IMG/VR virus record: IMGVR_UViG_2740892036_000008
Source: a virus
Lineage: Duplodnaviria > Heunggongvirae > Uroviricota > Caudoviricetes
Direction: 5' to 3' (one strand)
DNA length: 9,196 nucleotides
Shown: in pieces, positions 1 through 9,196 of the stretch
Position numbering within the stretch: position 1 is the stretch's first letter
Layout: the number at the start of each line of letters is the position of its first letter
Program-made: the position numbers and the translations under genes
The notes under the pieces: generated by a model
What the model was told of the DNA's origin: nothing
What the model saw: only the letters and a program-made list of their open reading frames with translations
Databases searched by the model: none

Positions 1-378
1 CTAACATGCGCCGCTTTTTTTAACCCTTCGCAGATCCCGCCTTGCTTGCATTGAAACGGCTCTCGCTAATCTCAGCTCAAGCCGTGCGATTCTGTCGGCA
101 TGTAGCCCCATGAGTCCGTTAATCAATGTCATCTCGCGCCATTCTTCTGTTCCCGGCGTCGGATTATTCGCCAGTAATAGCCCGTATCTCTCAGCCAGCA
201 TGAGGTTTCTTGCACGATTTCGCACCAGCGGAGAAAGCGCCTCTCCCCCCTCAAATGGGAAGAATGCCCGCCGACTGCGTTCGCCATGTTTGACGGCATT
301 AGTATTGCCCAATGGTGCGCCTGCGCCTTTCCGCTTGCCACCCCATCCCGATCTTGATTGTTGGCTATTTTTTTTCAT
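1..378 (-). CDS. hypothetical basic protein (125 aa); possible DNA-binding or packaging-associated function
   Basis: Complete ORF with ATG at 378-376 and TAG at 3-1, weak SD-like GTGAG about 8 nt upstream. Very basic N-terminus (SRSGWGGKRKGAGAPLGNTNAVKHG) and arginine-rich C-terminus. Same orientation as the rest of the module. Function not recognised with confidence. Confidence 0.55.
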   Translation of the reverse strand: MKKNSQQSRSGWGGKRKGAGAPLGNTNAVKHGERSRRAFFPFEGGEALSPLVRNRARNLMLAERYGLLLANNPTPGTEEWREMTLINGLMGLHADRIARLELRLARAVSMQARRDLRRVKKSGAC

Positions 379-5616: not shown

Positions 5617-5792
5617 GCTGCCACCTCACGAATGCGGGTAATCTGGATGTGGGAAAGGCGTTCATTTCTGGCCTGATTTAGCGCCTCAGCTTTGGCGCTG
5701 ATCGCGCTGCGGGCGTCAACGATATAAACGAACTCGACTAATTCGCCGCTCCGGGCGGTGGCGCATCCTGCAACACGGAAGTAATTAAGCAT
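5613..5792 (-). CDS. hypothetical small protein (59 aa from ATG; 69 aa if the TTG at 5822 is used)
   Basis: ATG at 5792-5790 preceded by AGGGGG 5 nt upstream; overlaps the Icd-like stop by 8 nt. The ORF-track start at 5822 is TTG and lies inside the Icd-like CDS, so the ATG is preferred. Confidence 0.45.
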   Translation of the reverse strand: MLNYFRVAGCATARSGELVEFVYIVDARSAISAKAEALNQARNERLSHIQITRIREVAA

Positions 5793-5976
5793 GTGCGCCC
5801 CCTGTGCGAATACGTCCGGCAAAAAAGCAAACGTGATCCCGCGCCAGAATGCGGCGGGCTTCCTGCTCAGTTTCTGCGGCGATATGGTGAATTTTGGCGG
5901 TAATTGTCGGCATGTCGCGGCGAACGGCTGCGATTAACCAGATAAATTGTGGATTTTGGGTAGGGGTAGTAGCCAT
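5785..5976 (-). CDS. Icd-like host cell-division inhibitor family small protein (63 aa)
   Basis: ATG at 5976-5974 with GAGG 8 nt upstream; TAA at 5787-5785. Sequence MATTPTQNPQFIWLIAAVRRD...FAGRIRTGGAHA resembles the short Icd-like proteins found ahead of primase genes in P4-like elements (from memory). Only the C-terminal 63 codons of the 257-aa ORF in the track are taken as coding. Confidence 0.6.
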   Translation of the reverse strand: MATTPTQNPQFIWLIAAVRRDMPTITAKIHHIAAETEQEARRILARDHVCFFAGRIRTGGAHA

Positions 5977-6496
5977 GATGGCAGCCTCTATACAGTGAAT
6001 TTTGAATTCACCACCAAGAGACGCCAATCTCAGACTGGTGGTGAGCTGAACAAGGTTGGCGTAACCGGCCTGTATAGACACCGGCCTTCCTTTCGGAAGC
6101 CTCATCCAGCCCACCATAATTTGGGTGCGCAGGAATTTTGCCGACAAAAAAACACGCTTAGTGCGTGTCGGCACTATACAGGTTATCGGGACGCCAATCC
6201 CGGCACCTGATTTTGCAGGTGCGCTATAACCATAAACCGGGTTGGCGATAGTCGGCAAGCCCTTTTTTATGGACTCGCAAAACTCACCTTCGCGCGTGCG
6301 CGTACTGGTCGCAAAACTCGAAAAAAACTTAGGATTTATTAGGATTCGCAGCCCAATTCTCAGCCCAGAAAACGCCTCTAAAATGTCGTCATTTGTCGCA
6401 ACGGCGCGGCGATGAATGTCAGGTTTTGACAGGTTGTAAGGGTTAACATTTGTTAACAGGCTAGCCAGATTAAAGGCTTCTTTCTGGGCGGCAGGT
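5977..6496 (-). ncRNA. candidate structured leader / immunity-type antisense RNA region (C4/CI-like, boundaries unknown)
   Basis: 520 bp with no convincing ORF start on the transcribed strand. 9-bp perfect inverted repeat TCACCACCA/TGGTGGTGA (6008-6016 / 6036-6044, 19-nt loop); minus-strand hairpin CUUCC-GAAA-GGAAG (6086-6099); terminator-like hairpin at 6140-6172; tandem TTAGGATT (6329-6336, 6339-6346); paired GTTAAC palindromes (6442-6447, 6452-6457). Position ahead of an icd-like gene matches P1 immI (c4-icd-ant) and the P4 CI RNA leader. Confidence 0.3.
6140..6172 (-). terminator. intrinsic-terminator-like hairpin with U-tract inside the leader
   Basis: On the minus strand: stem ACACGC/GCGUGU (6163-6168 pairs with 6152-6157), 5-nt loop, followed by six U (forward A-run 6146-6151); flanked by a further inverted repeat GCCGAC/GTCGGC (6140-6145 / 6167-6172). 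About 170 nt upstream of the Icd-like start. Confidence 0.4.
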
Positions 6497-6679
6497 TCAT
6501 TCAGTATCACGGCGCACCTCCACGAACTCCTTAACGAATCTCTCCAAAGGCTGAACACATGGCGACTGATAGCCCTCGCGGTAAAAGGTCACTCGGTTAT
6601 GCTCGACGCGCTGTACGGTCACTACAGCCCCGTGCGAATCCTTGTAACGGCTTCCCGGCATCGGATTATGGTTACGCAT
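6497..6679 (-). CDS. small protein (60 aa), DUF4222-like (tentative)
   Basis: ATG at 6679-6677 with GGAGG 6 nt upstream; overlaps the antirepressor stop by 8 nt; TGA at 6499-6497. Pattern YKDSHGAVVTVQRVEHNRVTFYREGY resembles small prophage DUF4222 proteins as I recall them (not searched). Confidence 0.5.
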   Translation of the reverse strand: MRNHNPMPGSRYKDSHGAVVTVQRVEHNRVTFYREGYQSPCVQPLERFVKEFVEVRRDTE

Positions 6680-7505
6680 GGTTTACCTCCAGACGTTTAG
6701 CGAGCCAGCGTTGCGACAGGCGGGTGAGTTCTCCTTTGCGCTGCTCATATTCCATGCCCATATCAATTAACGTGATATTGGTGCTTTCGAGATATGAGAG
6801 GTGCTCAAGCTGTTCTGCGTTCATATGGTCGCGAGGTTCGCCAGAATAGCCATTTATCCGCGCCCACTGCTTAGCAGTTAGCCCACCAAGAACGATACGA
6901 GAAATCATATTGCTCTCGTTTGTGTAGTGGTGTTGCTGCGTCGTTTTACCCATCTCGGCACGGGCCATATTCAGCGCATCGCACATCGGCTTAAAGTTGT
7001 TTGCGGCACTGATACGGGCTTTTAGCTGGCGACGATAGCGGGCGGCGATTTCAGGCACGCTACGCTGTAATTCTTCCTCGCACTGGATGAAATAACGGCG
7101 GATAGCGCGGCCCTGTTCGGTGCGTTCGATCATTGCCAGTTCTTTCGCCATTCCGACACTTAACAGATAGTCTTTGCCGGGTCTGCCAGAGTGCTTAATC
7201 TTGCTGTAAGCCGCGCCATTCGGGCTTTTCCCCAAATTTGGGGAAATAGTTTTATGGACTGAGTAATCGTGCCCAATGGTGAAGTCATATTCAGAGATGC
7301 GATCAGTGATCCATGTAGAGAAGTCTTTTCCCACGCCCAACGCTTTGTGTAACGCTTTTGCGCTAACAATATTGGTTTCACGCCCACCGATATGACCAGG
7401 AATAACCGGGACAATTGCGGCAAATTCATTACCGTTAATTGTGCCCTGATAGGCGTTCAGATGAGGGGCGGCCTCAGAAATTAATCTGCTTTTTTCGATG
7501 TTCAT
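6672..7505 (-). CDS. phage antirepressor-like protein (Bro-N / KilAC-type domains, tentative)
   Basis: 277 aa; ATG at 7505-7503 with GGAG upstream; TAA at 6674-6672. Central motif DYLLSVGMAKELAMIERTEQGRAIRRYFIQCEEEL is characteristic of phage antirepressor (Ant/KilAC-type) proteins; N-terminal segment IVSAKALHKALGVGKDFSTWITDRI is compatible with a Bro-N/KilA-N-like fold. Confidence 0.65.
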   Translation of the reverse strand: MNIEKSRLISEAAPHLNAYQGTINGNEFAAIVPVIPGHIGGRETNIVSAKALHKALGVGKDFSTWITDRISEYDFTIGHDYSVHKTISPNLGKSPNGAAYSKIKHSGRPGKDYLLSVGMAKELAMIERTEQGRAIRRYFIQCEEELQRSVPEIAARYRRQLKARISAANNFKPMCDALNMARAEMGKTTQQHHYTNESNMISRIVLGGLTAKQWARINGYSGEPRDHMNAEQLEHLSYLESTNITLIDMGMEYEQRKGELTRLSQRWLAKRLEVNHA

Positions 7506-7517
7506 TTTCAGTCTCCG

Positions 7518-7952
7518 TTAGGCGGCGGTGAGATTGTCCGGGTATAGATTGAGAATGTCGGCAATTTCAGGCTGAGAAAGTCCCTGATAGCCCCCAGCGT
7601 CGGCGTTATGGTTCACAAGCCGAATAACTTTTAGAACGTCACCGCGCCCGGTAAAGCGATAGCGTAAATGTGACCCGATCCCGTCGGGATTCTTTTCGTC
7701 GATACGCTCTAACTGAATATCAAGCCTGCGTTCTAACTCGCTGGCGTAGTTCCTTCCAGACGAAAGGCGGCAGTAGCGCAGAATGTCGTTTTCTGTCCAT
7801 CCCTCTACCCCAGTGCGTAGCATATAGACGCGGGCGCGGTGCTTCTTCGGTGTGCGGCGTGGCGCTTGTGTGGTGGGCGCTGGTGGCGTAACATCAGATC
7901 CGCGAATATCTATGTTAGCCGCCTGCTGTCCGGGGCGGTTTTCTTTTTTCAT
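7518..7952 (-). CDS. hypothetical protein (144 aa), basic Pro/Thr-rich N-terminus
   Basis: ATG at 7952-7950 overlaps the AlpA stop (ATGA); AAGGTGG upstream; TAA at 7520-7518, 12 nt before the antirepressor start. No family recognised. Confidence 0.6.
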   Translation of the reverse strand: MKKENRPGQQAANIDIRGSDVTPPAPTTQAPRRTPKKHRARVYMLRTGVEGWTENDILRYCRLSSGRNYASELERRLDIQLERIDEKNPDGIGSHLRYRFTGRGDVLKVIRLVNHNADAGGYQGLSQPEIADILNLYPDNLTAA

Positions 7953-8170
7953 CAGGCCACCTTCCCGCGACGCTCTGCCAGCCAGTTGTTAATCTCTACC
8001 GCATCAAAGGCGGTAATCTTCTCGCCCAGCTTTACCGGGCGCGGCAGAACCCCATTGCGAACTTTGCGATCAATGGTGGAAACGCTAACGCCCAGCAATT
8101 CAGCAAGGCGGAAGCGTCGGATATAGCCAGATTGGGGGATTGTGTGGGTTGTTGCGTTATGTGTTGCCAT
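7952..8170 (-). CDS. alpA: AlpA-family phage transcriptional regulator (HTH, Vis/AlpA-like)
   Basis: 72 aa; ATG at 8170-8168. Sequence RRFRLAELLGVSVSTIDRKVRNGVLPRPVKLGEKITAFDAVEINNWLAERR matches the AlpA/Vis helix-turn-helix pattern. First gene of a tightly packed co-directional gene string. Confidence 0.8.
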   Translation of the reverse strand: MATHNATTHTIPQSGYIRRFRLAELLGVSVSTIDRKVRNGVLPRPVKLGEKITAFDAVEINNWLAERRGKVA

Positions 8171-8262
8171 ATGTCCCGTAACCTCTTTTGATGGTTGTTG
8201 CTTCGTTACGGGTATGATGGGAGCAATAGATTGTAATGTATCGGAATTATTAGAAAACTCCC

Positions 8263-8281
8263 CGGAATTTTCATAATTCCG
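8263..8281 (-). terminator. possible weak terminator hairpin immediately after the cargo gene stop
   Basis: On the minus strand: CGGAAUU-AUGAA-AAUUCCG (7-bp stem, 5-nt loop) directly 3' of the stop codon at 8284-8282, with UUUU a few nt further on. AU-rich stem, so weak. Confidence 0.25.
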
Positions 8282-9196
8282 TTATCGGTTGACTCCCCCT
8301 TTTCGCAGCCAATCTATAAGCGTCTTATCATCATCCGGGAGTGGTAGCTCCTCACCTTTATTGTTAGCTTTATTTCTCAGTTGTGTAATGCTGCCTTTTA
8401 AATCACTATCGGTTAAGCCTATACGTTTAAGTAATGCGACAATTAGTCTCATCTGTTTTTCTGTTGTTTTTACTGGTTTTCCTACATTCATTTCCGTCGG
8501 CGGTAAGGGAATAACACCTCCGTTAATCATGCTTTTAATCGGCTCGCCTGTGTCTATTGCGTCTTTGAGTTTTAAAATGGTATCTCTGGCAATAAATAGA
8601 TCGGAAGTTGTCAAAGTCTCATTAAGCGCAGGTTTTCGGCTCTCACTTAACTGAAACCCTATGCTTTCGGCTAGTTGTCTGTTTAGCGTAGGTAGCCAGC
8701 TCTGATTAAAATATCTATCGCTAATTATCTGACACGAAAGGCCAGTCTTCTCGCGGAAAGTGTCCCATCCGAACGGCCTGAAAATTGTCGTGTCTATCAC
8801 CCTTGCCCTCTTAGAATAAAGAAGACTTTCTATTTCACTGTGTCCCAGACACCATAGCCCGTTCGCCAATCCTCTAAATAAAATAAGCCCACTATCTGTT
8901 TTGTATGCGTCATGTTCGGTGAGCGTGGAATTAAAATGAGATATATAGTTGCCCTCACGAAAAAGAAATGATGAGTTTCCTTTGTGTTCGTGATAAAACT
9001 CAATTGGGTCTTTTATATCTTTACCGCCTATAAAAGCCAAAGTAGAAGAAAATCCTCTCATCATTATACACAACGGTATAGCCCCAATAACTCCATAGTG
9101 AAGTAAATCATCTGTATCGCATTGCAGGTGATGCTGCCAACTTACTGATTTAGTGTATGATGGTGTTTTTGAGGTGCTCCAGTGGCTTCTGTTTCT
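8282..9196 (-). CDS. hypothetical cargo protein, AT-rich, 5' end probably outside the window
   Basis: TAA at 8284-8282. ORF-track start is TTG at 9073 (ATG at 9064 and 9061), but the same frame stays open with no stop up to the window edge at 9196, so the true start may lie beyond the window. Region 8220-9196 is visibly lower in G+C (about 40%) than the rest (about 55%), with different codon usage. No family recognised. Confidence 0.5.
   Translation of the reverse strand, partial: RNRSHWSTSKTPSYTKSVSWQHHLQCDTDDLLHYGVIGAIPLCIMMRGFSSTLAFIGGKDIKDPIEFYHEHKGNSSFLFREGNYISHFNSTLTEHDAYKTDSGLILFRGLANGLWCLGHSEIESLLYSKRARVIDTTIFRPFGWDTFREKTGLSCQIISDRYFNQSWLPTLNRQLAESIGFQLSESRKPALNETLTTSDLFIARDTILKLKDAIDTGEPIKSMINGGVIPLPPTEMNVGKPVKTTEKQMRLIVALLKRIGLTDSDLKGSITQLRNKANNKGEELPLPDDDKTLIDWLRKGGVNR

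Follow-up and report, generated by a model that had tools for sequence, protein, structure and literature searches.

An AntA-family gene in an exchangeable slot of a putative EcCIMP1-type phage-inducible chromosomal island

Background

Gram-negative phage-inducible chromosomal islands (PICIs), as reportedly defined by Fillol-Salom 2018, possess int, a co-oriented alpA and primase/replication genes, measure about 10-20 kb and contain no structural or lysis genes. P4-like satellites are said to share the core set of Moura de Sousa & Rocha 2022, consisting of sid, psu, delta and epsilon together with int, alpA and alpha. The epsilon protein of P4 acts on the P2 C repressor, and Ant of phage P22 acts on C2. 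The Bro network, reportedly described by Iyer et al. 2002, also includes genuine repressor-binding antirepressors, e.g. those of the P1 and N15 systems.

Directly comparable with the island studied here is EcCIMP1, a PICI of Escherichia coli MP1 (Pick, Stadel & Raivio, ISME J 2025; PMC11773190). Its excision and transduction take place only with the helper phage Kapi1, and its master regulator is alpA, which is turned on only after helper induction (PMC11773190). One gene, strongly conserved among EcCIMP1-like elements, is drawn as 'antirepressor' in the same paper (PMC11773190). A 'Bro zone' located between the integration (int, alpA) and replication genes of Gram-negative PICIs and HE-PICIs was described by Mageeney et al. 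(NAR Genom Bioinform 2023; PMC10111431). It contains mostly domain-swapping Bro-network proteins (AntA, Bro-N, Phage_ASH and others) together with C4/isrK immunity RNAs (PMC10111431). The eta gene of P4 contains PLE, seqA and cI; it is coupled to an upstream alpA homologue and its translation suppresses termination (PMC10111431).

We analysed a window of 9,196 nucleotides (IMG/VR virus record IMGVR_UViG_2740892036_000008), in which an AntA-family gene, here called ant, is followed by a gene for a small DUF4222 protein. The gene pair is already annotated in RefSeq, publications describe the island family and the Bro zone, and an Ant with 96% identity resides in a characterised PICI. What remains of interest is a conserved, swappable satellite gene, its apparent control by alpA and not by C4, and an unexpected DdrC-like structure prediction. 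The reading we favour, with a probability of roughly one half, is that Ant and DUF4222 are the middle cistrons of a helper-inducible alpA operon, Ant acting as a DNA-binding regulator and DUF4222 as a coupling cistron.

Results

In complete genomes, the island spans ~13 kb and is bounded by yicC and a duplicated dinD. Its genes are arranged in the order int, a 307-aa cargo ORF, alpA, orf144, ant, DUF4222, an Ash/Eta-like ORF with leader promoter, isrK and C4, then icd, three small ORFs, a TOPRIM/DUF927 primase, SSB and PerC (Table 1). Location of int at the end, co-orientation of alpA, presence of a primase module and total length all correspond to the gene content of Gram-negative PICIs. The ant-DUF4222 pair, at a coverage of at least 80%, was found in 615 of 5,426 complete E. 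coli genomes, i.e. in about 11%.

Table 1. Positions of the features discussed, in coordinates of the window
Feature	Position	Strand	Basis
Candidate helper-responsive alpA promoter, sigma-70-like match	8246..8274	-	consensus match
alpA-type HTH regulator/excisionase, first gene of the putative operon	7952..8170	-	Phage_AlpA 33 bits
orf144, 144-aa conserved hypothetical protein	7518..7952	-	ORF list, synteny, dN/dS
ant, AntA-family (Bro-network) protein, 277 aa	6672..7505	-	ORF list, Pfam, PHROGs, dN/dS
DUF4222 protein, 60 aa	6497..6679	-	ORF list, Pfam, junction sequences, dN/dS
Ash/Eta-like ORF, 241 aa; GTG at 6510, Shine-Dalgarno GGAGG 6520-6516	5785..6510	-	ORF list, Pfam
Leader promoter: TTGCCG (6258-6253), 18-nt spacer, TATGGT (6234-6229)	6229..6258	-	conservation
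c4-a1b1 targets	6235..6183	-	Rfam RF03163, 48.4 bits
isrK-type RNA	6222..6147	-	Rfam RF01394, 75.8 bits
isrK terminator	6169..6151 + T-run	-	terminator scan
C4 antisense RNA	6121..6034	-	Rfam RF01695, 72.4 bits
Short Icd-like cistron, 63 aa	5785..5976	-	NF033153, 73 bits

EcCIMP1 displays the same gene order, namely int, alpA, a 143-aa ORF, AntA, DUF4222, an Ash-like ORF with isrK and C4, an Icd-like gene, TOPRIM/DUF927 primase, PerC and a gene of the pRiA4b ORF-3 family. The two islands differ in their integration site, which is tRNA-Thr in EcCIMP1 and the yicC/dinD region here. The island of the window has neither the P22-like ejection-protein block nor a second alpA, both present in EcCIMP1; it in turn carries, unlike EcCIMP1, the 307-aa ORF, which has no family match and occupies the variable cargo slot between int and alpA. 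Ant is 96% identical to its EcCIMP1 counterpart, whereas DUF4222 and orf144 reach only 67% and 76% identity. Such a mosaic pattern of identity shows that Ant moves independently of its neighbours.

No match to sid, psu, delta or epsilon was detected by Pfam, PHROGs or NCBIfam among the scanned ORFs of the window, and three small island genes at the dinD end, lying outside the window, were judged by their RefSeq names alone. With sid, psu and delta, which P4 possesses, not found, a P4-like satellite was rejected; an ordinary prophage remnant was rejected because the genes follow PICI order and the island matches EcCIMP1. Gene order and this match also support the preliminary description, in which the DNA had been taken for a phage satellite, and point to an EcCIMP1-type PICI with a P4/P1-like RNA immunity leader.

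The AntA domain (Pfam PF08346) was identified at residues 47-129 of the 277-aa protein with 76 bits against a cut-off of 27 (E 3.5e-21) and covers profile positions 1-68 of 68, i.e. the whole domain above the curated gathering threshold of the AntA/AntB family. PHROGs places the protein in the anti-repressor Ant families phrog_5817 and phrog_377, and its RefSeq name is 'antA/AntB antirepressor family protein'. The 60-aa product of the next gene, named 'DUF4222 domain-containing protein' in RefSeq, passes the membership threshold of Pfam DUF4222 (PF13973; 79.8 bits against a cut-off of 27, E 1.1e-22, profile positions 2-52 of 53). Both genes had been recognised in the preliminary description as an antirepressor-type and a DUF4222-like ORF overlapping by 8 nt, with which coordinates and Pfam agree; the domain family, left open there, is AntA. 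Comparison with orthologues gave dN/dS values of 0.10-0.46 for ant and 0.18-0.34 for DUF4222, indicating that both are real genes under purifying selection. Full-length relatives were found in Escherichia, Dickeya, Yersinia, Edwardsiella and Orbaceae. No NCBIfam model matches Ant, DUF4222 or orf144, and PDB sequence searches with Ant, with profiles of Ant and orf144 and with DUF4222 returned no meaningful match. AntA domains of phages are joined to many different C-terminal domains; that of Ant matches no Pfam family.

Satellites commonly carry defence genes. Residues 165-266 of Ant match PDC-S22, a phage-defence candidate of PADLOC (E 4e-11), and EcCIMP1 confers on Kapi1 lysogens immunity to superinfection by Kapi1, no known defence system having been detected in it (PMC11773190). 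Ant, alone or with DUF4222 or orf144, might be the anti-phage or superinfection-exclusion effector behind this immunity. We regard this as very improbable, as PDC-S22 is a candidate family only, for which no function is reported in the literature, and Ant is a conserved backbone gene retained from E. coli to Orbaceae, variable cargo being located elsewhere, between int and alpA. The difference from a DNA-binding regulator also fades if 'defence' is understood as repression of phage genes.

Next, we examined how the cistrons are joined. The start codon of orf144 sits on the alpA stop codon (1-nt overlap) and a gap of 12 nt separates orf144 from ant. The overlap between ant and DUF4222 covers 6672-6679, with a Shine-Dalgarno sequence GGAGG 6 nt ahead of the DUF4222 ATG, and DUF4222 overlaps the downstream Ash/Eta-like ORF by 14 nt. 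From alpA down to the primase, each cistron either overlaps the next or is separated from it by no more than 14 nt. In scans for consensus matches, no terminator was predicted on the minus strand from alpA to the leader (8170 to 6230), and the isrK terminator was the sole terminator-like site of this strand between 8400 and 5700. Upstream of alpA, a single sigma-70-like match was found on the minus strand, flanked by a 17-nt inverted repeat (8239-8255 / 8268-8284).

These observations suggest that ant and DUF4222 are part of the alpA operon and precede the leader promoter; owing to this position ant would escape control by C4. The location downstream of alpA and upstream of the leader is the one originally proposed. 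DUF4222 is, judging from its two junctions, translationally coupled on both sides, to ant as well as to the Ash/Eta-like ORF; operon structure and coupling are read from the sequence only. Coupling to ant, as first described, is thus backed by overlap and Shine-Dalgarno sequence, but DUF4222 is not an Ant-specific partner, since some sister islands lack it or have it elsewhere, and in others it comes after a Bro-N gene.

The leader promoter is kept in five of the six sister islands aligned, and has diverged in Shimwellia L003 and in phage N15. The probable transcription start, around 6222, coincides with position 1 of the isrK model. Two loops of C4 (nt 44-53 and 60-66) are complementary to 6182-6174 and 6197-6191 and, a second time, to 5995-5987 and 6027-6021, and this second target set (a2) overlaps the Shine-Dalgarno sequence of icd. 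The candidate antisense-RNA leader that had been noticed earlier is therefore borne out by the Rfam matches to C4, isrK and c4-a1b1 and by complementarity between C4 and its targets. By these marks it is a bona fide C4-type switch, which would govern icd and the replication (primase) operon.

The 241-aa ORF remains open through both the isrK and C4 RNA genes and terminates as the Icd-like peptide; in RefSeq it is named 'Icd-like protein'. The probability of 241 codons staying open by chance is ~1e-5. Pfam Phage_ASH matches residues 110-202 of a 257-aa form, precisely the stretch encoding isrK and C4. All sister islands examined, EcCIMP1 and the Orbaceae elements among them, possess a long leader-spanning ORF (250-428 codons); it begins at the end of the preceding gene, sometimes in another frame than icd. 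In dN/dS comparison with Shimwellia, the N-terminal part of the Ash-like ORF shows too little divergence for an estimate and is followed by a non-homologous tail. The arrangement resembles the Bro zone and P4 in that immunity RNAs are placed inside an Ash-type ORF coupled to upstream genes. P4, however, lacks an AntA gene in the vis-eta interval, and epsilon, by which P4 derepresses its helper, is unrelated and encoded downstream of cI.

DNA of the leader is common to many lambdoid phages, a P1-like phage and N15. A tblastn search of phages with the Icd-like peptide gave no match; phages of P1 type were found through a search with leader DNA, and the comparison with P1 refers to the P1-like phage vB_EcoM-673R5, not to P1 itself. 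Resemblance to P1 immI and N15 immA comprises the C4 RNA, duplicated a/b targets with a2 over the icd Shine-Dalgarno sequence, an isrK-like first hairpin with terminator, an Icd-like peptide and a Bro-network gene nearby. As in anti-immunity operons, C4 is accompanied by a/b targets, one set of which covers the icd ribosome-binding site. The position of ant is different. In P1 and N15 the antirepressor gene lies downstream of icd under control of C4, whereas in the window ant lies upstream of the leader promoter and icd is followed by small ORFs and the primase. The gene order is C4, icd and a 257-aa ORF6N protein in vB_EcoM-673R5, and isrK, C4, an Ash fragment, gene 31 and a Bro-N 'anti-repressor' (gene 30) in N15. 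BLASTP of Ant against the antirepressor of the P1-like phage and against N15 gene 30 yielded E values of 5.7 and 0.04 over 10-40 residues, that is, no similarity, and homology of Ant to these Bro-N and ORF6N proteins was rejected.

Of the echo of the P1 c4-icd-ant layout suggested in the preliminary description, C4, its targets and icd are therefore retained, while ant itself falls outside the scheme, being upstream of the leader promoter in the presumed alpA operon and non-homologous to the P1-like and N15 antirepressors. The analogy with P1 needs correction in this respect: in EcCIMP1-type islands the Bro-type gene appears to be under control of alpA and the helper, not of antisense RNA. Action of Ant on the island's own immunity, also considered originally, lacks an obvious protein target, because this immunity is RNA-based and the family searches, which covered a set of ORFs inside the window or adjoining it, revealed no recognisable repressor gene.

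Could Ant nevertheless be a classical antirepressor, inactivating the CI-type repressor of a resident helper prophage and triggering or reinforcing its induction so that the island gets packaged? The family name and PHROG annotation point this way, and so do the Bro-network proteins located beside the same C4/icd leader at antirepressor positions (Bro-N gene 30 in N15, ORF6N in the P1-like phage). Satellites gain from helper induction, with P4 epsilon as a precedent; Ant of the Stx phage Phi24B promotes efficient induction (PMC3064807) and the related phage TL-2011c has AntA-domain genes in its corresponding region. We nonetheless find it unlikely. If ant belongs to the alpA operon and alpA is switched on as in EcCIMP1, its product would come too late for a trigger. 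Deletion of EcCIMP1, with its almost identical Ant, changed neither the Kapi1 titre after mitomycin C nor expression of Kapi1 CI-lux (PMC11773190), which makes a repressor-binding helper inducer less likely than a helper-induced, swappable DNA-binding regulator. To this must be added the lack of homology to the N15 and P1-like antirepressors and a predicted fold pointing to DNA-binding proteins (see below).

AriS of Listeria phage phi10403S, a protein composed of AntA and KilAC, contains the sole experimentally dissected AntA domain; this lowers phage transcription, replication and virion yield and causes no derepression (PMC9043618). Like Ant, AriS carries Pfam AntA at its N terminus and a distinct effector domain at its C terminus, and it is annotated as 'antirepressor'. 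It differs in that the domain at its C terminus (ANT/KilAC), which inhibits SOS, has no Pfam-recognisable counterpart in Ant. Taken together, antirepressor activity of Ant seems doubtful.

Synteny of the ant region could be traced from E. coli to Orbaceae. In Klebsiella islands, the same slot is filled by a Bro-N gene instead of AntA, and these sister islands retain orf144, the first ~20 codons (the N-terminal tail), DUF4222 and the Ash ORF. With AntA here, Bro-N in its place in the Klebsiella islands and Phage_ASH adjoining, the composition is that of the Bro zone, and Ant occupies its exchangeable slot.

Ant was modelled with AlphaFold2 on the basis of 52 homologues; pLDDT averaged 76.8 and exceeded 90 in the C-terminal part. 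The model predicts a disordered tail at residues 1-25, followed by the AntA domain at ~27-128, in which a beta-hairpin precedes a winged helix of the type helix-helix-strand-strand-helix (together 27-126), with a disordered basic insertion at residues 87-108. Two long helices and a helical bundle (130-271) come next, the C-terminal domain (~130-271) being predicted as all-helical. With the model as query, the only significant full-length structural match among PDB structures was DdrC of Deinococcus radiodurans (7qvb, 7udi, 8u0g), at low TM-scores (0.31-0.42) and 13-16% identity. TM-scores are low because the domain orientations differ; no signal was seen at the sequence level, profile matches included. 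To our knowledge, DdrC has been supposed to be Deinococcus-specific, and at the time its structure was determined there was no structural homologue to compare it with.

The likeness, known on the side of Ant from the predicted model, would lie in an N-terminal beta-hairpin plus winged helix combined with a C-terminal helical bundle. The winged helix of DdrC is acidic and that of Ant basic (pI 9.3), and DdrC is a chromosomal stress protein, ant a gene of a mobile element. In DdrC, the winged helix has been suggested to make no contact with DNA (PMC9303277); the protein binds two duplexes, circularises and compacts DNA, and senses breaks (PMC9303277; PMC11347143). By analogy, Ant might serve as a DNA-end-, nick- or duplex-bridging protein that circularises or protects the linear satellite genome once it has been injected, or that compacts or organises replicating satellite DNA for packaging, and not as a regulator of transcription. 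The location of ant directly upstream of the replication module would suit such a role. We consider it very improbable, on a par with the defence role, as the resemblance comes from a predicted model with low identity and no profile match, phage AntA domains combine with varied C-terminal domains, and an unrelated Bro-N protein fills the slot in sister islands, which fits better with a specificity or regulatory function.

Discussion

The reading we prefer, that of a helper-induced DNA-binding regulator with a coupling cistron behind it, can be formulated as a sequence of events. The helper phage would turn on alpA, and Ant would be made only thereafter, outside control by the C4 antisense RNA. 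Ant would probably be a dimeric DNA-binding protein, with its basic beta-hairpin and Dachshund-type winged helix followed by the helical C-terminal bundle, as in the predicted DdrC-like architecture. The swappable N-terminal domain may provide specificity for DNA of the helper or of superinfecting phages, or for promoters of the island itself. Ant would then resemble PLE CapR or the AntA domain of AriS, rather than titrate the helper CI repressor.

DUF4222 could hand ribosomes over from ant to the Ash/Eta-like leader-spanning ORF. By analogy with P4 vis-eta, translation across the leader may allow transcripts from the alpA promoter to escape C4/isrK-dependent termination and to reach icd and the primase. 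It is quite possible that DUF4222 also has an independent role.

The slot can accordingly be viewed as a swappable cassette (AntA or Bro-N) within a translationally coupled chain of cistrons that runs into the immunity leader. In an island family of such prevalence in E. coli, the cassette makes a promising candidate for what determines helper specificity.

Predicted DdrC-like architecture suggests DNA binding, not repressor titration, as a working hypothesis for a very large and hardly studied 'antirepressor' family; PF08346 is matched by 7,544 representative clusters at E<=1e-3. It is a bolder and rather unlikely extension that 'antirepressors' combining AntA with a helical domain could in general be dimeric DNA-binding or -bridging proteins of DdrC type, not repressor binders, and that DdrC could conversely be related to this mobile-element family and have been domesticated. 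Following induction of alpA, Ant would then work directly on DNA of the helper or of the satellite itself.

Two minor observations concern the neighbours of ant. Hafnia phage yong2 contains a DUF4222-like segment directly before Ash/isrK/C4; the 275-aa gene upstream of it was checked and is not AntA. The gene between alpA and ant, orf144, had been overlooked in the preliminary description. Although without any family or fold match, it accompanies the ant/Bro slot in most related islands, and among those examined it is found with ant more often than DUF4222 is.

An immunity switch beneath a protein-domain match

Judged by its sequence, window 5960-6260 (- strand) is a complete P1-type immunity switch. 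Two stretches of the leader RNA C4 each pair with two complementary targets. For nucleotides 44-53 these are 6182-6174 and 5995-5987, of which the second overlies the SD of the Icd-like cistron icd; for nucleotides 60-66 they are 6197-6191 and 6027-6021. The model of another leader RNA, isrK, spans the first C4 target set together with a terminator. This switch precedes a primase operon rather than an antirepressor gene.

The isrK and C4 genes coincide with the Phage_ASH match in the 257-aa Ash-type ORF. Since the match overlies both, a single stretch of DNA makes up the 'protein domain' as well as the RNA genes. RefSeq labels the entire ORF 'Icd-like protein' in this island, and its counterpart in EcCIMP1, the PICI of E. 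coli MP1, is recorded as an 'ash family' pseudogene.

Features of the island and of sister islands discussed in the text
Feature	Location	Strand	Remarks
125-aa ORF	window 1-378	-	N-terminus GGKRKGAGAPLGNTNAVKHG
257-aa Ash-type ORF	window 5785-6558	-	Pfam Phage_ASH at residues 110-202, nt 6231-5953
53-bp stretch	window 7194-7246		inside ant, residues 87-104; codes for disordered basic insertion in AntA 'wing'
orf144	window 7518-7952	-	144 aa, basic, pI 9.6, N-terminus disordered
307-aa ORF	window 8282-9196; full ORF, L001 (locus with the complete ORF) 23282-24205	-	between int and alpA
int-alpA RNA motif RF02996	sister-island loci L002 8198-8265; L007 7870-7935; L008 8401-8466		Rfam

The ant gene and its product

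We compared the AF2 model of the AntA-family ant product (window 6672-7505) with PDB structures, and its sole significant neighbour was DdrC of Deinococcus (7qvb, 7udi, 8u0g), a protein whose structure had to be solved de novo because homologue structures did not exist (PMC9303277). The resemblance of the predicted model is a hint of possible kinship between DdrC and the AntA-type proteins of mobile elements.

Within ant, the 53-bp stretch contains a perfect 20-bp palindrome, TTTCCCCAAATTTGGGGAAA (7227-7246). Sequence 94% identical to the whole stretch is shared by 42 Stx/lambdoid phages, and the copy in TL-2011c is followed, about 250 bp downstream, by an AntA ORF that is truncated and by an AntA 'antirepressor' of 209 aa. 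The palindrome-bearing stretch may be what remains of a gene, or else a site that acts in cis.

Neighbouring ORFs

Islands of Enterobacterales widely carry orf144, and in every locus examined it is adjoined by the Bro-type slot, the exchangeable ant position. A search for family matches to orf144 returned none, nor did its predicted model (moderate confidence) yield a fold match.

The 307-aa ORF has a low GC content (about 41%) and no match in Pfam, PHROG, NCBIfam or PADLOC. Sister islands hold their own ORFs of 222-330 aa at this position, none of which was matched by tblastn with the 307-aa query, and EcCIMP1 has no ORF there. The position looks like a variable cargo slot, its cargo possibly serving defence. 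Three sister islands bear the Rfam 'int-alpA RNA' between int and alpA; for the window the motif was not reported, even in a permissive Rfam scan at E<=1.

At the window start, the N-terminus of the 125-aa ORF gives a weak, sub-threshold match to the terminase small-subunit model NF040601 (E 1e-3). The ORF is 99% conserved in one Shimwellia island and, given this conservation, may be a packaging-redirection gene.
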